Virus record (IMG/VR): IMGVR_UViG_2690316269_000012
Reading direction: 5' to 3' (one strand)
Source of the DNA: a virus
Lineage: Duplodnaviria; Heunggongvirae; Uroviricota; Caudoviricetes
Length of the DNA stretch: 35,124 nucleotides
Shown here: piece after piece, positions 1,385 through 34,243 of the stretch
Numbering within the stretch: the stretch's first letter is position 1
Layout of the letters: the number at the start of each line of letters is the position of its first letter
Made by a program: the position numbers and the translations under genes
The notes under the pieces: generated by a model
Told to the model about the DNA's origin: nothing
What the model saw: only the letters and a program-made list of their open reading frames with translations
Database searches by the model: none

Positions 1385-2035
1385 TTACAAATTAAAAAAC
1401 ACCCTAGAAATGGCACCGCCTACCAAAACCCCTACGCAGATAAAGAATATTATTTCTTTTGGATAAAGTCGGATTAATTCTGAAGCACGAAGTCGAACTT
1501 CTGGTAAGGCCGAACTCTCTGTGTGACTTGATGCCGATTGTTGCTCTAACCACGACAATGCAGACTGTAACTGAGAACGAGTAAGATCGTTTAAACGTCC
1601 TGTACCGAAATTGATATGGCAATACCGCAGAAGTTTTTGTCGAAGTCCACAGTCTTCACTGTTACGTAGTAATAAACTTACAAGAGTCTTACAGGCATCA
1701 TGATCTTTACATCGCTCAAGCATTGCATGCAGAAAACTCTCCGCTGTTTTATATTGATTTACTGTCATATCATCAATACCAGCTACACCAATCTCCGCAT
1801 GTACTTTTTGCCAAATAATAAACGCTTCAGTATTGCTAGCTTCTGCAATAGCAGCAACCAAGCTATTTAGCTCCTTACGCTGAGCCTTAAGCAAAGGGCG
1901 ATCGTCATCATCATTATTCGAAGGGATTGCGATATTGACGGTATGAGAACCATCATATCGCTCTATCTGAATATTCTTTTCGTGAAAATCACGCCCAGCA
2001 ACGCGATTGTTTGAACCGTTTGAGTTGACGGCCAT
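1385..2035 (-). CDS. membrane-anchored protein of unknown function (cargo)
   Basis: 216-aa ORF; soluble N-terminal region and a single C-terminal hydrophobic helix (IIFFICVGVLVGGAISRVFF); 15 nt downstream of the repressor stop. Confidence 0.55.
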   Translation of the reverse strand: MAVNSNGSNNRVAGRDFHEKNIQIERYDGSHTVNIAIPSNNDDDDRPLLKAQRKELNSLVAAIAEASNTEAFIIWQKVHAEIGVAGIDDMTVNQYKTAESFLHAMLERCKDHDACKTLVSLLLRNSEDCGLRQKLLRYCHINFGTGRLNDLTRSQLQSALSWLEQQSASSHTESSALPEVRLRASELIRLYPKEIIFFICVGVLVGGAISRVFFNL

Positions 2036-7898: not shown

Positions 7899-8858
7899 AT
7901 GAAAATTTACATCGACGACGGCTCCACCAACATCAAGCTGGCATGGACTGAGAACGGCGAACGCCGCAACGCCATCAGCCCGAACAGCTTCAAGTCGGAA
8001 TGGTCTGCGCCGTTCGGTGGCTCGCAGCCTGCTAACTACATGCTTGATGGCGTGCGCTATGGTTTTGATCCGGTCAGCGATCGCTTTGTCCAGACGACCG
8101 ACACGCAATACCAGTACAGCGATGTGAATGTCATTGCCATTCATCACGCGCTGGTCAAATCAGACATCACGCCACAGGAAGTGGATGTGGTTGTTACCCT
8201 GCCACTGAGCGAATATTTCGACACAAACGCACAGCCGGACATGGCCAACATCAACCGCAAAAAAGCGAACGTCATGCGCCCGGTGGAGTACCAGAACGGC
8301 GAAGCATTCACTATCCGTAACGTACGGGTTATGCCTGAATCCATTCCGGCTGGCTTTAAAGCACTGGCTGACATGAGTCCGTTTGAATCCCTGCTGATTG
8401 TGGATTTGGGCGGAACCACGCTGGATGTGGCAAAGGTTCAGGGGCAACTGGCAGGTATCAGCCAGGTGTTTTGCGATCCACACGTAGGCGTTTCTCTTAT
8501 GGCCGATGCCGTACTGTCGGTGATGGCCACTAACGGTATGCGCACCAGTCACCACATCGCCAATACCATTATCGAACATCGCCATAATGAAGCCTGGCTG
8601 CGCCAGCACATCCACAATGACGCGCATTACGCCAGCCTGATGGCGGTTATTCGTGAAAAGGAAGAAACACTGAAACAACGCGTGATCCGCGCGCTGGCGG
8701 TTTTTTCGGGTTACGGGCGGGTGATGGTTGTCGGTGGCGGGGCGGAGATTGTGGCACCCGCTATCCGCGAAGCCTGCGGAGTTAATGCGACTTTCATCGC
8801 GGACGGGGTGCCACAGTTTGCTCTGGTTAATGGGCTGTACGCAATGGACAAGGAGTAA
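7899..8858 (+). CDS. parM: actin-like segregation ATPase ParM/StbA
   Basis: 319 aa; N-terminus MKIYIDDGSTNIKLAW and later blocks (YSDVNVIAIHHAL, VMPESIPAG, LIVDLGGTTLD, VVGGGAEI) match plasmid R1 ParM closely from memory. Confidence 0.88.
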   Translation: MKIYIDDGSTNIKLAWTENGERRNAISPNSFKSEWSAPFGGSQPANYMLDGVRYGFDPVSDRFVQTTDTQYQYSDVNVIAIHHALVKSDITPQEVDVVVTLPLSEYFDTNAQPDMANINRKKANVMRPVEYQNGEAFTIRNVRVMPESIPAGFKALADMSPFESLLIVDLGGTTLDVAKVQGQLAGISQVFCDPHVGVSLMADAVLSVMATNGMRTSHHIANTIIEHRHNEAWLRQHIHNDAHYASLMAVIREKEETLKQRVIRALAVFSGYGRVMVVGGGAEIVAPAIREACGVNATFIADGVPQFALVNGLYAMDKE

Positions 8859-16096: not shown

Positions 16097-16600
16097 GTGA
16101 ACCCCATGAGTATGGTTGCCAGAACTAACCCCGGCCCCGCAGAGGACGACATCACCGATACCGATGATGGCGACACTCGCATTTCAGCGGGTGCATTCTG
16201 GCCGGATATTGTGCTGCGTGAGCTGCGTCTGGCGGTACGACTGCCGGGCCGCGTGACCACCTCCCGCCTGCTGCATACCGCCACCGGGGCCATAGCACAC
16301 GTTACCCGCGAGCTGGAAGCATGGCAGCAGGAACAACAGGCGGCTGGCTATCAGACGCTGGCCGATGTTCCGGCCCCTGTAATTAACGGAGAAAGCGTCA
16401 ATCTCTGGCACTGGCGCAATGCTGTTTATACCGCCACACGCGCCCTGATTCTGGAGCGTTACCGCGATGCGGACACAACGGACAAGGGCGACCGCCGGGC
16501 GGACGCACTGGATATACAGACATCGGATTTGTGGCGCGATGTGAGCTGGGCCATCTCTGACATTCTGGGACGACCGCGAATGTTTGCGGAGCTGTGCTGA
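16097..16600 (+). CDS. L: head completion/stabilisation protein (P2 gpL)
   Basis: 167 aa; position and size as P2 L. Confidence 0.82.
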   Translation: MNPMSMVARTNPGPAEDDITDTDDGDTRISAGAFWPDIVLRELRLAVRLPGRVTTSRLLHTATGAIAHVTRELEAWQQEQQAAGYQTLADVPAPVINGESVNLWHWRNAVYTATRALILERYRDADTTDKGDRRADALDIQTSDLWRDVSWAISDILGRPRMFAELC

Positions 16601-16800
16601 TGAAAGTGAAGGCACTGGAAGGCGACACCGTGGATTCGCTCTGTTTCCGGTACTACGGCACGACACGGGGCGTCACCGAAAAGGTGCTGGATGCCAACCC
16701 CGGACTCTGTCAGCAGGTATTTCTGGACGCCGGGCAGGAAGTGGAGATGCCGGAGCCGGAGAAGAAGAAACGAGAAATGATTCAGTTGTGGGGGGAGTAG
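16600..16800 (+). CDS. X: tail protein X (LysM-like)
   Basis: 66 aa; MKVKALEGDTVDSLCFRYYG...VLDANPGL resembles P2 X; ATG overlaps L stop. Confidence 0.8.
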   Translation: MKVKALEGDTVDSLCFRYYGTTRGVTEKVLDANPGLCQQVFLDAGQEVEMPEPEKKKREMIQLWGE

Positions 16801-16802
16801 CA

Positions 16803-17126
16803 GTGAGCACCATTCAAACAGGGATCACAGAGCAGGTTATTGCGTGGCTCTTTGACCACCTGCCAACGGTGTATGCAGTAGGCGCGGCTGTCAGCATTTC
16901 CGCGCTGATGAGTCTTTATGACGGACGAACACTGGTTCAGACCGTAACGGGATCGCTGGCGTGCGGCGTTCTTGCCATGGCCGTGGCCGGGTCGCTGCGC
17001 TTCTTCGGGATCCCTGAGGATGCAGTGACGTTTTTTGGTGCCTCAATCGGTTTTATGGGCGCAGAGAAAGCACGCGACAAGGTTATTGCAATATTTGATC
17101 GCAGGGTGAAGGAGAGGAACGAATGA
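16803..17126 (+). CDS. holin (candidate)
   Basis: 107 aa from GTG at 16803 with GGGGGAG RBS; three hydrophobic segments; first gene of the lysis cassette. Confidence 0.6.
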   Translation: MSTIQTGITEQVIAWLFDHLPTVYAVGAAVSISALMSLYDGRTLVQTVTGSLACGVLAMAVAGSLRFFGIPEDAVTFFGASIGFMGAEKARDKVIAIFDRRVKERNE

Positions 17127-17515
17127 GCAACACATTTAAATTCAGCAGCCGAAGCGAAAAGAATTTGCAGGGTGTAAATCCTGATCTGGTGAAAGTGACC
17201 CGACGGGCGCTGGAAATCTCGGAAGTGGATTTTGGTATCACCGAAGGATTGCGCAGTCGTTATCGTCAGAAGCAGCTCGTGACCACAGGCAAGAGCCAGA
17301 CCATGAACAGTCGCCATCTCACAGGGCATGCCGTGGATGTTGTGGCTTATGTTGGCAGCCAGGTGTCATGGGAATGGCCGCTGTACGAAAAAATCGCAGC
17401 AGCATTCAGACAGGCCAGCCGGGAACTGAATATTCCGGTGGAATGGGGCGGCGACTGGAAGACCCTGAAAGACGGACCGCATTTTCAGTTACCACACGGA
17501 GCCTATCCGGCATGA
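17123..17515 (+). CDS. endolysin, peptidase M15-type
   Basis: 130 aa; SRHLTGHAVDV and later His consistent with the M15 zinc-ligand pattern; between holin and spanins. Confidence 0.75.
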   Translation: MSNTFKFSSRSEKNLQGVNPDLVKVTRRALEISEVDFGITEGLRSRYRQKQLVTTGKSQTMNSRHLTGHAVDVVAYVGSQVSWEWPLYEKIAAAFRQASRELNIPVEWGGDWKTLKDGPHFQLPHGAYPA

Positions 17516-17919
17516 AGCTCTGGCCCACGCTTGGCGTCGCTTTCCTTCTGATTGCCGCATGGGGAACATCCATGCGTCTGTCGTGGTCGCTGGGCCGGGA
17601 GAACGCCAGAAACGAAGCGCAGGCCAGCACCCTGAAAAGTACCGTCGACACACTGAATATCATCAGCGCCGGGGTACAGGATATGCAGCAGGTGCTGGCT
17701 CAACTCCGCGCGGACAATCAGCAACGCAATCAGGACGGAGAGGTAAGACGTGAACAGCTACGCAACGATATTGCAAAAGATGAATGCGCCCACGCTTTGC
17801 CTGACGCTCGTTTTACTGACAGGTTGCGCAGGCACGCAGAACGCGCCACGGCCAGCGCCGTCAGTCCGGCTTATACCGCAGACGCTGACCATGCCGGTAA
17901 CGCCTCCCCCCTTCCCTGA
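17512..17919 (+). CDS. lysB: i-spanin (Rz/LysB-like)
   Basis: 135 aa from ATG at 17512 overlapping the endolysin stop; N-terminal TM helix then coiled-coil-like region. Confidence 0.65.
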   Translation: MKLWPTLGVAFLLIAAWGTSMRLSWSLGRENARNEAQASTLKSTVDTLNIISAGVQDMQQVLAQLRADNQQRNQDGEVRREQLRNDIAKDECAHALPDARFTDRLRRHAERATASAVSPAYTADADHAGNASPLP

Positions 17920-18061
17920 CCAACCCACATGGGGAAACCTCGGAATATGGGGCGACCGCCTTCTGGATGCACTGGAAACCTGTAACGCGGATAAACGGGC
18001 CATTGCTGAACTGGATAAGAGAATAGCCGAACTGACACACCAGACGGGAGTAACACAATGA
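17780..18061 (+). CDS. lysC: o-spanin lipoprotein (Rz1/LysC-like)
   Basis: Starts inside lysB in another frame; lipobox LLTGC; proline-rich. Confidence 0.6.
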   Translation: MNAPTLCLTLVLLTGCAGTQNAPRPAPSVRLIPQTLTMPVTPPPFPDQPTWGNLGIWGDRLLDALETCNADKRAIAELDKRIAELTHQTGVTQ

Positions 18062-18918
18062 CCAGTAAGAACTTTGCACTGATTACAGCCATGACACAGG
18101 CTGAACTGACTCAAAAGGTGAATGAACATCTTGCGAAAGGGTGGCATCTTCAGGGGGAGACGCGGGTTGCCTACGAACCCGGCACCCCGTGGTATCTAAT
18201 GCAGGCAATGGTGGCCGATGGCACTACAGACATCTCACCTGATTCCCCCCAGCACGGCAGCGTGCCGGAGTGGTATTACGTGGTGGTACTTGCTGGTCAA
18301 TCCAATGCCATGTCATATGGTGAGGGAATGCCGCTGCCGGATTCTTACGATGCGCCCCACCCACGCATTAAGCAACTGGCCCGTCGCAACACAGTGACTC
18401 CCGGTGGTAAAGCATGCGCATTTAACGACATCATTCCGGCAGATCACTGCCTGCATGATGTTCAGGATATGAGCGCACTGAATCACCCGAATGCAGACCT
18501 GAGCAAAGGGCAGTATGGCTGTGTCGGACAGGGCTTGCATATTGCCAAACGCCTGTTGCCTTACATTCCACAGAATGCCGGGATTTTACTGGTTCCATGC
18601 TGTCGTGGTGGTTCGGCATTCACCCAGACCACAGACGGCAAACTGAATCTGATGCATCACAAGAAAGCAGGAAACACAAAGTTGGGCGAGTTCGGGAATT
18701 ACAGTAACGACTGGCAGACGCTGGAGCTGGTGTTCACCGCCAGCAGTGCCACGGTTACTCCGAAACTGAATGGAGTGGCTGGCCCGGCATTCCAGGTCAT
18801 AAAAGACAGTCTGACACTGGGGCTGAATGCACTGACGCTGACGGATATTACCAAAAATGCAACGTATGGCGTTGAGATAGAAAGTCTGGTGCTGGAAATA
18901 AATAGTCCTGCAGCGTAA
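18058..18918 (+). CDS. DUF1737-like N-terminus plus SASA/SGNH-type esterase-like domain (NanS-p-like cargo)
   Basis: 286 aa; GQSN motif (VVLAGQSNAMSYGEG) as in sialate O-acetylesterase-type esterases; ATGA overlap with lysC; absent from canonical P2 lysis-R junction. Confidence 0.6.
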   Translation: MTSKNFALITAMTQAELTQKVNEHLAKGWHLQGETRVAYEPGTPWYLMQAMVADGTTDISPDSPQHGSVPEWYYVVVLAGQSNAMSYGEGMPLPDSYDAPHPRIKQLARRNTVTPGGKACAFNDIIPADHCLHDVQDMSALNHPNADLSKGQYGCVGQGLHIAKRLLPYIPQNAGILLVPCCRGGSAFTQTTDGKLNLMHHKKAGNTKLGEFGNYSNDWQTLELVFTASSATVTPKLNGVAGPAFQVIKDSLTLGLNALTLTDITKNATYGVEIESLVLEINSPAA

Positions 18919-18941
18919 GGAAGAACAGGAGAGCAAAACAG

Positions 18942-19409
18942 ATGCTTAAGACAAACAGCCTCCGGAAGGGCATGATTCATGGGTGTCGCTGGTGTCAGGC
19001 CAACCCGGAAAAATTCACCATTTTCGTGGAGAGCGGCAACATTGAAACGACCGGAGAAACGCCCTCGTTTGTTTACCGCTATCAGATGGTGATGTTTGTC
19101 ATGGATTACGCCGGGGAGCTGGACGACCTCACGCTGCCGCTACTGGCGTGGTTATCCGAAAATCAGCCGCAATTGTTGCTTAATCCGGAGCGTAATCAGG
19201 ACATCAAATTCTCCGCCGTTATCAATGACGATGACAGCGCCGATCTCCTGTTTACGCTCCCTCTGCGGGAACGCGTTCGCATCACGCGCAGCAGTCAGGG
19301 GGCACCGCAGGCAGAACACCTGCAGGAGCCAAAACCCCGTCTGCCATCTTCCGAAGGCGACTGGTCGCATGTATTCCAGGATGTGACGTGGGGTGAAAGC
19401 GATGGATAA
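18942..19409 (+). CDS. R: tail completion protein R
   Basis: 155 aa, same length as P2 R; position. Confidence 0.82.
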   Translation: MLKTNSLRKGMIHGCRWCQANPEKFTIFVESGNIETTGETPSFVYRYQMVMFVMDYAGELDDLTLPLLAWLSENQPQLLLNPERNQDIKFSAVINDDDSADLLFTLPLRERVRITRSSQGAPQAEHLQEPKPRLPSSEGDWSHVFQDVTWGESDG

Positions 19410-20037
19410 GGCATTCACCCGCGTGGATGAAACCTTTGAGGCTATCCGCGACAGCCTGAATCAGCAGGCCATCAATAACATCGCCAGAAAGCTGGCACAG
19501 GATTTACGCCGCGCCCAGCAGGCGCGTATCCGGTCACAGAAAGCGCCGGACGGGACCGCGTGGACACCACGCAGACGCCGCGTAACCCGGATACAGGAGC
19601 GCATTCGCTTTATCTGGAATAACGAAGCACGCACGCTGAAAAACTGGCATCACGACACGGGGAAATACGGGCGAACCATTACCGGGTGGGATGAGGATAA
19701 AAACAATATCCGCACGTTTTACCGGGATGACATCGACCGCTTTCTGGAAATACGCACCCGGCGCATCAACCAGGACAGCACAAAGCGCGTCCCCATGTTC
19801 GTAAAACTGCGCACCGCCCGCTACCTGAAAGCCCGTGCAGATGCTTCCGGTGTGACGGTGGGTTACAGCGGCGTGGCCGCACGTATTGCCCGCGTTCATC
19901 AGTTCGGTGAGCGCGATCAGGTTGCGCCGGGCATTTTCACCGATTACCCGGTACGTGAGCTGTTGGGCATCAGTCAGGCAGATGAACGCCTGATTTATAA
20001 CACGGTGCTGGGCCGGATTGCGGAGGCTGTACGGTGA
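19402..20037 (+). CDS. S: tail completion / virion morphogenesis protein S
   Basis: 211 aa from ATG at 19402 overlapping R stop; longer than P2 S (about 150 aa). Confidence 0.8.
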   Translation: MDKAFTRVDETFEAIRDSLNQQAINNIARKLAQDLRRAQQARIRSQKAPDGTAWTPRRRRVTRIQERIRFIWNNEARTLKNWHHDTGKYGRTITGWDEDKNNIRTFYRDDIDRFLEIRTRRINQDSTKRVPMFVKLRTARYLKARADASGVTVGYSGVAARIARVHQFGERDQVAPGIFTDYPVRELLGISQADERLIYNTVLGRIAEAVR

Positions 20038-20615
20038 GCGCAGAACTCATGCGACTGCTGAGCAACATCATCCGCACTGGGATCATCTCTGAAGTTGATG
20101 AGAAGTCCTGGTGCGTGCGCGTTCGCAGCGGCGAACTGGAAACAGGCTGGTTGCGCTGGAACACCACGCGCGCGGGAGCCTTCAATGTGTGGCTGCCGCC
20201 ATCACCCGGCGAACAGGTGGTAATTGCCTGCATTGGCGGCAACCCGGAAACCGCCATGATAATTGGCAGCCTGTGGAGTGATGCCAATCCGGCCCCCGGC
20301 AAAAGCCTGAAAGAAATCGTGGTCAGCGCGCCGGATGGCGCGGTGTTCCGCTACGACGCGGACGCAGGCGCACTGAGCGCCAGCGGCATGAAAACGGCCA
20401 CCCTGCAGGCATCCGTCAGTGTGACACTGGACACGCCCGTCGTGGAATGCACAGACCTTCTGAGAACGGCGACGCTTGACGTCACAAAAGGGGGAAAGAT
20501 GAGCGGCAATATCACGCACAGCGGCGGCAATTTCACCTCAAACGGCATCACAGTGCATACGCATAAACACGGTGGCGTGAAAGGTGGCAGCGATTCGACA
20601 GGAGGCCCGCAGTGA
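20034..20615 (+). CDS. V: baseplate spike protein V
   Basis: 193 aa; GTGA overlap with S; position. Confidence 0.82.
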   Translation: MSAELMRLLSNIIRTGIISEVDEKSWCVRVRSGELETGWLRWNTTRAGAFNVWLPPSPGEQVVIACIGGNPETAMIIGSLWSDANPAPGKSLKEIVVSAPDGAVFRYDADAGALSASGMKTATLQASVSVTLDTPVVECTDLLRTATLDVTKGGKMSGNITHSGGNFTSNGITVHTHKHGGVKGGSDSTGGPQ

Positions 20616-25141: not shown

Positions 25142-25747
25142 CTATTTATACAATACAACACCGCTCTTTTTAGTTATATATGTGCAGTTCGATGGTATAT
25201 CTTTATTTATAAAAGACATTGCACCTATTTTTACATTATCCCCAATTTTACGTGATAATCCAATGATGCAACAATTAGCTCCGATATCAACGTTACTACC
25301 AATTTTTACTCTTGAACCAGGCATGTCACCATCTATCTGTCCAATGGTAGTATTCTGTCGTAACACCAGATTTTCACCAGCATCAACAGCAAAATGAACA
25401 ACAATTCCAGCATGATGGGGAATTGTTAACCCTTTTCCAATATTTGCGCCCAATCCAATTTCACAACCAAATTTGTTAATTATTTTACTGTTTAACTTTT
25501 TGGCTGCTTTCTTATGTAATTTATTACCATTAATATACATTTCGTTAGCCAACCGCCACCAGAAAAGGAAATTCCGGTTACGCTGTTTTTTCTCTCTTAA
25601 AAGCCTCCAGATATCCATACGTTTCCGCCGAATTACTTCATATTTCCAGAAGTTTTTTAAATTAGTAGAGTCCCCAAATAAAACAAAGTGAATTGCCATT
25701 AAGTAAGACAGCACGATAATCTCCTTAATTATTATTTCAGACCACAC
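25142..25747 (-). CDS. hexapeptide-repeat (left-handed beta-helix) O-acetyltransferase, CysE/WcaB-like (cargo)
   Basis: 201 aa; tandem hexapeptide repeats (IGANIGKGLTI, IGSNVDIGANCCIIG, IGDNVKIGAMSFI); strongly AT-rich island 25100..25860. Confidence 0.75.
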   Translation of the reverse strand: MWSEIIIKEIIVLSYLMAIHFVLFGDSTNLKNFWKYEVIRRKRMDIWRLLREKKQRNRNFLFWWRLANEMYINGNKLHKKAAKKLNSKIINKFGCEIGLGANIGKGLTIPHHAGIVVHFAVDAGENLVLRQNTTIGQIDGDMPGSRVKIGSNVDIGANCCIIGLSRKIGDNVKIGAMSFINKDIPSNCTYITKKSGVVLYK

Positions 25748-33103: not shown

Positions 33104-34243
33104 GTGGGAAACAATAAAGTGAAATTAGGAAGAAATGATAAGTGCTGGTGTAATTCAGGACTTAAGTATAAAAAGTGCCATCTTGGTCGAGATCGTGAAA
33201 CTCCGGTATCCAAAGCCGAGGCACTGAAATTTTCAAAGTCTCTCTCGCAGAGAAAGGCATGTTATGCGCCAGCATCCATGCACGAAGATTGTGATAAACG
33301 CATCGTTCAGGCGCATACGATATCTAAGAGCAGTAGCCTTAAGGCGATCGCCGACTCCAGCAATCACGTCATGGGGGTGATAATGAACTTAGCAAGCCTG
33401 ATGAGAAACAACGGAAAATGGCTTCCCGAGAAGATCGGTATCAATCAGGCATCCACTTTTACAGGATTTTGTGCAGTTCATGACAGAATCTTATTTTCAT
33501 GCCTAGAGAACGAAAAATTTACAGGCACGGACGAGCAGTGCTTTGCCTTAATGTTTCGTTCATTGTCTAAAGAAATTTATGCCAAAGAAGGGGGAGTGCT
33601 ATCTTCTGATTTTGCTAAAAATGCCGATAAAGGAAAGCTACAAGTTGAACAGTATTATATTCAGAAATTAATCGACCAGCACCAAAGTGGCTTAAATGCA
33701 GCAATAATTGAATTAAATAATCTTAAAACTAGCCTCGACCGCATCCTACTTAGCAGGCAATTTTCAGAAATTGAAAGTGTTATCTTCACTTTTGCAGAGC
33801 CTTTACCAATTGTAGTTTCGTCAATTCTTTCACCGGAGAGGGATTTCGATGGGACCAAAATTCAGGATTTGAGCGATCTTACAGTGTCGGCGGAACAAGT
33901 ATGTTTCAATGCTTTTTCCTGCGGAGGTAAGGGATATGTAGTGTTCAGTTGGCTGAGAACTTCAACAATTATCAGACGTTTTATACGGACACTAATTAAG
34001 ATCCCAGCTAACAGGATGTTCAATACCCTTCTGTATTTTTTCTTCACAAAGGCCGAAAATACATATTCATCCCCTGAGTGGTGGGACAGGCTCAGTGATA
34101 AACAGCGAGAGAATATCGGCAACATGATTATGTCAGGGGTTGAATTTTTTGGCATACCTACATCACAGGTTGATCATTCCGTTGATTATAACGCCGCTGC
34201 ACTTGAAGAGATAACATGCAGCAACAACGAAATTTGCAGCTGA
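33104..34243 (+). CDS. SEC-C-motif protein with uncharacterised C-terminal domain (cargo)
   Basis: 379 aa (GTG at 33104, or in-frame GTG at 33119); N-terminal LGRNDKCWCNSGLKYKKCH matches the SecA-type SEC-C zinc motif; remainder unrecognised; AT-rich island between D and ogr. Confidence 0.6.
   Translation: MGNNKVKLGRNDKCWCNSGLKYKKCHLGRDRETPVSKAEALKFSKSLSQRKACYAPASMHEDCDKRIVQAHTISKSSSLKAIADSSNHVMGVIMNLASLMRNNGKWLPEKIGINQASTFTGFCAVHDRILFSCLENEKFTGTDEQCFALMFRSLSKEIYAKEGGVLSSDFAKNADKGKLQVEQYYIQKLIDQHQSGLNAAIIELNNLKTSLDRILLSRQFSEIESVIFTFAEPLPIVVSSILSPERDFDGTKIQDLSDLTVSAEQVCFNAFSCGGKGYVVFSWLRTSTIIRRFIRTLIKIPANRMFNTLLYFFFTKAENTYSSPEWWDRLSDKQRENIGNMIMSGVEFFGIPTSQVDHSVDYNAAALEEITCSNNEICS

Follow-up and report, generated by a model that had tools for sequence, protein, structure and literature searches.

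The gene analyzed here is related to the nanS-p genes of Stx and other lambdoid prophages. According to a review, the products of these genes have been shown by experiment to be active 9-O-acetyl sialate esterases, which enable lysogens to grow on Neu5,9Ac2 and on mucin sialates (PMC8065619). The chromosomal enzyme NanS (3PT5) carries the conserved blocks 17-GQSNA-21, 120-RGGSAF-125 and 178-MQGEFD-183, as well as an SHFS motif with its His at about position 301 (PMC10792757). In SASA enzymes, the (H)QGE network of Block III positions the oxyanion Gln, and activity is lost when Block I or Block III residues are substituted; of the Block V pair, EcNanS naturally contains the His but not the Asp (PMC9487903). 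A different role was assigned to one NanS-p homologue, gp84 of phi24B, in a 2026 preprint that describes it as a capsid-decoration protein whose DUF1737 domain binds hexons. According to that preprint, the DUF1737 domain has a fold of one helix and three antiparallel strands, it remains bound to the capsid once cleavage at about residue 57 has removed the esterase and lectin parts, and most DUF1737 proteins consist of this single domain. We found no paper that links nanS-p to P2-like phages, and the nanS-p passages of a review in which both terms appear are silent on P2-like phages.

The window, by which we mean the whole 35,124-nucleotide stretch of viral DNA that was analyzed, contains a gene of this ancestry in a P2-family prophage. 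An ORF of 286 codons with an ATG start (18058-18918, plus strand) lies where an earlier note on this DNA had placed it, between lysC and R. The lysC ORF (17750-18061, plus strand) encodes an Rz1-like o-spanin (PHROG Rz-like spanin, 8e-19), is embedded in lysB and runs past the lysB end; RefSeq annotates lysC at the equivalent position of the E. coli O103 RM8385 locus (L001). The TGA stop codon of lysC and the ATG of the 286-aa ORF overlap as ATGA (18058-18061), a juxtaposition that agrees with the translational coupling the same note had claimed. A GGGAG Shine-Dalgarno-like motif, read from the sequence, lies at 18046-18050 (plus strand), 7 nt upstream of the ATG at 18058. The next gene of the late operon is that of the gpR tail completion or terminator protein (18942-19409, plus strand; PHROG tail terminator, Pfam P2_Phage_GpR). 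Thus, the ORF occupies a late-gene position among temperate-phage genes, with genes for a holin, an M15 endolysin and the lysB and lysC spanins upstream, and the tail genes R and S, followed by V, W and J, downstream.

The P2 genes O-N-M-L-X-Y-K-lysA/B/C-R-S form one Ogr-activated late operon. By its position, the 286-aa ORF would be transcribed and translated together with the late genes and coupled to lysC. A scan of positions 16500-19500 for promoters and terminators returned sites no more numerous than those in shuffled controls, and it placed no plus-strand terminator after the ORF. We considered an independently transcribed moron and dropped this idea because the scan gave no convincing separate promoter or terminator. 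The GC content of the ORF, about 0.51-0.57, does not contrast sharply with that of its neighbours. The comparison that the earlier note drew with lambdoid prophages, in which NanS-p genes were said to sit just after the lysis genes, has to be corrected. In Stx/lambdoid phages, nanS-p precedes the lysis cassette, with stx on one side and the holin gene S on the other; in Stx2-phage 86, its neighbours are stx2B and holin S.

In E. coli O103 RM8385, a P88-like prophage carries, in the identical slot between lysC and gpR, a gene of 1878 bp that encodes a protein of 625 aa, which answers the question of whether relatives have a full-length version with one at the very same locus. We compared the two loci directly. 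Window positions 17000-18627 correspond to L001 2943-4570, and window positions 18619-20100 correspond to L001 5579-7060; each segment is 99.9% identical with one mismatch, and the two collinear segments share 9 nt in the window. Relative to the full-length gene, exactly 1017 bp, or 339 codons, are missing, so the reading frame is kept. The missing block is bounded by the 9-bp direct repeat TTCACCCAG, found at L001 4562-4570 and 5579-5587, with its two copies 1017 bp apart; a single copy remains at the deletion junction in the window (18619-18627, plus strand). The 286-aa protein retains aa 1-190 and aa 530-625 of the full-length protein, is identical to it across both retained parts, and lacks aa 191-529. 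The ORF is thus an in-frame internal-deletion allele of the 625-aa P2-type NanS-p-like gene. The earlier note had described a protein much shortened, and possibly truncated; with flanks that are 99.9% identical, what is absent is an internal block of 339 residues and not an end.

Nine different 9-mers occur twice in the full-length gene, which means that a repeated pair is unremarkable by itself. The endpoints of the deletion fall exactly on one such pair, the classic sign of a slipped-strand or microhomology-mediated deletion, and from this we infer the mechanism. A single deletion between the two copies of TTCACCCAG, by replication slippage or by microhomology-mediated illegitimate recombination, would account for the allele. 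Because the frame is preserved, no premature stop codon arises ahead of R and S.

The retained parts are of unequal completeness. The N-terminal DUF1737 domain (18067-18216, plus strand; aa 4-53) is intact and matches Pfam PF08410 with 30.0 bits against a cut-off of 24, covering profile positions 2-52 of 53. This bears out the DUF1737-like N-terminus that had been claimed, and gives the protein the first part of the three-domain NanS-p architecture. It is followed by the N-terminal 38% of a SASA/SGNH esterase domain (18262-18627, plus strand; aa 69-190) and by the C-terminal portion, roughly 46%, of a lectin-like jelly-roll (DUF6645; 18628-18915, plus strand; aa 191-286, equivalent to aa 530-625 of the full-length protein). 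Against the sequences of solved structures, aa 69-200 match only residues 17-148 of 3pt5 (E 1.2e-54) and aa 187-283 match only residues 116-218 of 6yp6 (E 3.3e-13), so the proposed similarity to NanS-p holds. The corresponding matches of the full-length relative extend from aa 69 to 388 over 3pt5 residues 17-332 (E 2e-124), and from aa 430 to 622 over residues 13-218 of the 6yp6 lectin-like jelly-roll. Only 122 of about 320 residues of the esterase domain are left in the 286-aa protein (62% lost), and about half of the jelly-roll is gone, leaving no complete lectin domain. Pfam places DUF6645 on aa 188-247 (profile 52-115 of 119), and its SASA match (aa 75-192, profile 4-99 of 226) scores 18.1 bits, below the gathering cut-off of 24.8. 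NCBIfam gave no family match for the 286-aa protein or for its 625-aa relative.

With respect to catalysis, Block I, GQSNA (18295-18309, plus strand; aa 80-84), is kept and aligns with 3PT5 residues 17-21, with Ser82 as nucleophile and Gln81 in the oxyanion hole; this is the GQSN motif to which the earlier note had pointed. Block II, RGGSAF (18604-18621, plus strand; aa 183-188), is also kept and abuts the deletion junction. A motif search found no Block III MQGEFD in the 286-aa protein; in the full-length relative it begins at aa 241. Likewise, the 286-aa protein has no [ST]HFS motif of Block V, which is THFS at aa 367 in the full-length relative, and His368 of the full-length protein, the equivalent of His301 in NanS, falls within the deleted block. 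Lost with aa 191-529 are thus Block III and the Block V His, together with the linker between the two domains and the first half of the lectin domain. A Ser-His-Asp triad, which had been proposed as the measure of completeness, was rejected as a test for this family, since EcNanS itself lacks the Block V Asp. The proper test is therefore the presence of the Ser, the QGE and the His, of which the 286-aa protein has only the first. The earlier note had suggested a domain search for catalytic completeness, with missing catalytic residues counting against an esterase, and had suspected that the catalytic domain was incomplete; the search finds the QGE of Block III and the Block V His deleted, and the suspicion is confirmed.

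We modelled the 286-aa protein with AF2 from a shallow alignment of 27 sequences, a depth at which low pLDDT is no proof of misfolding. The mean pLDDT is 53. Residues 4-54 form a beta-alpha-beta-beta unit, and the means of 10-residue blocks over aa 1-50 are 68-89, dropping to 61 over aa 51-60. Confidence is patchy across the SGNH fragment, and all residues from 182 to 286 have pLDDT values below 50. A Foldseek search of the PDB with this model returned only 3pt5 (123 of 320 residues, target-normalised TM-score 0.32) and did not recover the lectin domain. In this model, the DUF1737 domain of roughly 54 residues is the sole complete and confidently modelled folding unit of the protein. No complete alpha/beta/alpha SGNH fold is left.

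The exact 286-aa protein is recorded in 8 contigs. A 39-mer that spans the junction is present in five loci (L004-L008) from five NCBI draft assemblies (GCA_001285565.1, GCA_047714725.1, GCA_012557915.1, GCA_039687215.1 and GCA_025249065.1), and each of these is 100% identical to the window across its full length, up to 12.9 kb. The 39-mer is absent from L001-L003 and L009, has no match in the JGI metagenome contigs, and no junction-spanning match occurs in any of 5,426 complete RefSeq E. coli genomes. This distribution indicates one recent event in one prophage lineage. The 5' part of the gene is far more common. In a megablast search of complete E. coli genomes, nt 1-570 of the ORF are 100% identical in many records, and in the rows listed the matches lie mostly beside lysC, inside a gene annotated as 'DUF6645 domain-containing protein'. 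The P2-type 5' segment, which encodes DUF1737, is present in 376 of the 5,426 genomes (about 7%), almost always once per genome, and in the rows sampled is overlapped by lysC wherever lysC is annotated. Its carriers include ST131 and O104:H4 strains, such as O104:H4 str. 2009EL-2050. The P2-type DUF1737 variant is also present in three P2-like phages, and the full-length P2-type protein, WP_000202144.1 (625 aa), also occurs in phages vB_EcoM-569R5 and vB_EcoM-705R2.

Other P88-like phages (P88, 520873, P884B11 and others) lack a nanS-p-type gene altogether. Since P88-like phages exist without it, the gene is dispensable cargo. The cargo segment in the window (18006-18983, plus strand), delimited by blast layout and alignment, replaces 93 bp of phage 520873 and spans the 3' end of lysC, the 286-aa ORF and the first 42 nt of R. 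Its homology breakpoints against gene-less P88-type phages lie within the 3' end of lysC (18006-18057) and the start of gpR (18942-18983). Because these breakpoints are inside genes and not intergenic, acquisition of the gene also replaced the ends of both neighbours. A second boundary is apparent within the gene itself. Compared with gp03 of Stx2-phage 86 (L009 1727-3619), the DUF1737 region (18058-18261) is about 30% identical, and the esterase and lectin parts are about 80-95% identical, a pattern that fits exchange of the N-terminal domain as a module between phage types.

Taken together, these observations make it very probable that the 286-aa ORF is a decayed internal-deletion remnant of a NanS-p-type sialate O-acetylesterase cargo gene, and that its product is catalytically dead. 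The ancestral cargo would have been a NanS-p-type gene between lysC and R in P88-like (Xuanwuvirus, P2-family) E. coli prophages. In the deletion allele, the opening 38% of the SGNH/SASA domain is joined to about the final 46% of the lectin-like jelly-roll, giving a fused product that keeps the nucleophilic Ser of GQSN and the Gly of Block II and has lost most of the alpha/beta/alpha fold. Given that the Block III QGE, the Block V His and most of the fold are missing, the product is predicted to be inactive as an esterase, and folding of the fused half-domains is unlikely. The functional short-form carbohydrate esterase that the earlier note had suggested could appeal to the GQSN nucleophile motif, to Block II and to an intact ORF coupled to lysC. 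We nevertheless regard it as highly improbable: the QGE and the Block V His are deleted, only the 122-residue portion of the esterase domain is left, the Pfam SASA score is under its cut-off, and in SASA enzymes the substitution of Block I or Block III residues is enough to abolish activity (PMC9487903). Thus, the part of the note's proposal that stands is a cargo gene of NanS-p origin between lysC and R, and the part that falls is the working esterase. An assembly or sequencing artefact, namely a collapsed repeat in a multi-copy gene family, also had to be weighed, since nanS-p genes are multi-copy (median 3 places in a genome, maximum 16), often break assemblies, and have many database homologues labelled 'partial'. 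It was rejected because five separate assemblies share the identical junction. In addition, the flanks align collinearly with a single P2-like prophage (99.9% identity), the 9-bp repeat is too short to cause an assembly collapse, and the N-terminal segment is single-copy and P2-specific, all of which leaves an artefact with a negligible probability.

A more serious competitor to the remnant reading starts from the one domain that is intact. The deletion allele could be a minimal capsid-decoration protein that acts through DUF1737, with its C-terminal junk tolerated or cleaved. The intact and confidently modelled state of this domain speaks for such a role, as does the assignment of capsid binding to DUF1737 in the phi24B preprint. 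The divergence of the P2-type DUF1737 from the Stx-phage type, counted from the alignment, in a protein otherwise closely similar, points the same way, and a similar Ser/Pro-rich linker (DISPDSP) follows the domain. The variant is single-copy in its genomes and confined to lysC-adjacent sites of P2-like prophages, which would fit a capsid-type-specific module. Nevertheless, phi24B is a T=9 podovirus in which gp84 sits on hexons at the face centres, whereas the host here is P2-type; the residue at the position aligned with the anchoring Tyr42 of phi24B is different; and the gene is dispensable in that many close P88-like phages lack it. The preserved frame, start codon, Shine-Dalgarno-like motif, ATGA coupling and unchanged persistence of the allele are what a retained function would look like too, but such a function would be indistinguishable from neutral persistence in a clone, and since all carriers are sequence-identical, their persistence may reflect a young clone. 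On balance, we consider a decoration role for the deletion allele unlikely, though by a much smaller margin than the esterase. By the same analogy with phi24B, and with equally tentative standing, the P2-type DUF1737 may be a lineage-specific anchor for P2-type capsids, and the deletion allele an 'anchor-only' variant that decorates the virion. If this were true, NanS-p proteins would be modular virion-displayed enzymes across unrelated phage morphotypes, and more than morons that serve lysogen fitness.

We retain the reading of the 286-aa ORF as a remnant, and as such it is a case of ordinary gene decay in a known cargo gene whose full-length version is routinely annotated in RefSeq. Internal-deletion decay recurs in the multi-copy nanS-p family. 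Besides the window allele, six nanS-p proteins have internal in-frame gaps relative to the 625-aa protein (P0001, P0002, P0006, P0009, P0034 and P0101), and P0001, P0002, P0009 and P0101 are in-frame internal-deletion variants in the protein database. The homologue search behind these counts returned mostly partial proteins from contig ends, with no full-length sequence among the 120 listed. When the window allele is counted, five of the seven gapped variants resume at full-length aa 515-530, which suggests a putative deletion or recombination hotspot where the last roughly 110 residues of nanS-p proteins begin. Some of the gapped proteins may be different C-terminal subtypes instead of deletions.

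Several other features of the window came to light. A plus-strand gene after gpA (7899-8858) encodes a ParM/StbA actin-like plasmid-segregation protein (Pfam StbA_N 1e-80, ParM_N 3e-68), and genes of the partition type are unusual among the cargo of integrating phages. Directly after the tail-fibre assembly gene, on the opposite strand, lies an ORF of 201 aa that resembles left-handed beta-helix O-acetyltransferases (25142-25747, minus strand); its NCBIfam matches to EpsC, CysE and WcaB (E 5e-21 to 1e-14) all stay well under the family cut-offs. The ORF has the look of a moron whose product could acetylate a surface polysaccharide, and its co-occurrence with a presumed dead O-acetylesterase in one prophage is curious. 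An ORF of 379 aa (33104-34243, plus strand) follows gpD close to the end of the prophage, a position typical of P2 cargo or defence hotspots. It carries a SEC-C motif at its N-terminus (Pfam 2e-08), and no further domain was recognisable in Pfam or NCBIfam. Near the integrase, an ORF of 216 aa (1385-2035, minus strand) has no Pfam match and resembles the flagella regulator Flk weakly (NCBIfam 9e-16, a score well under the cut-off). Within tail gene S, 271 bp (19652-19922) are 99.3% identical to positions 242157-242427 of the Aeromonas phage AP1 record MT713136.1. The matching part is unannotated in that 254-kb record, and the match may represent contamination or a chimeric assembly in MT713136.1.

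The value of the main result is mostly for annotation. Pfam labels the ORF DUF1737/DUF6645, and its relatives are named 'SASA family carbohydrate esterase'; the 286-aa protein should instead be described as a NanS-p deletion remnant, outside the functional esterase family. It should also be excluded from counts of functional nanS-p genes when the use of O-acetylated sialic acid from mucin is inferred from such counts. The allele provides a clean, datable example of an in-frame deletion, apparently microhomology-mediated, in a phage cargo gene that lies within an essential late operon. Finally, the presence of a P2-family nanS-p with a distinct DUF1737 in this share of complete E. coli genomes, for which we found no discussion in the literature searched, bears on the proposal that DUF1737 binds capsids.

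Among known systems, the nearest is the P88-like allele that encodes WP_000202144.1, annotated in RefSeq as 'DUF6645 domain-containing protein'. It has the same lysC-X-gpR locus, the same ATGA coupling and the same DUF1737 variant within surrounding DNA that is 99.9% identical, and differs from the window allele in possessing aa 191-529. The NanS-p proteins of Stx/lambdoid phages (933W z1466, phi24B vb_24B_21/gp84 and Stx2-phage 86 gp03) go back to the same combination of three parts, namely DUF1737, SASA esterase and a C-terminal lectin-like domain. With 78% identity to Stx2-86 gp03, the full-length P2-type protein presumably shares the 9-O-acetyl sialate esterase activity. Like the Stx/lambdoid genes, the window gene is prophage late-gene cargo, and no N-terminal signal peptide is apparent by eye; unlike them, it resides in a P2-family myovirus at a post-lysC position, has a divergent DUF1737, and in the window allele is internally deleted and without the catalytic residues. 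Chromosomal NanS (YjhS, 3PT5) is roughly 70% identical over its residues 17-148 to aa 69-200 of the window protein, by a count from the alignment, and GQSNA and RGGSAF are common to both. Unlike the window protein, NanS has MQGEFD and His301 and is complete as a single-domain enzyme. Compared with stand-alone DUF1737 proteins and the phi24B domain, the window domain is likewise an alpha/beta unit of roughly 54 residues, modelled as beta-alpha-beta-beta; compared with the stand-alone proteins, the window protein diverges in sequence and has 230 residues of domain fragments fused to the domain.
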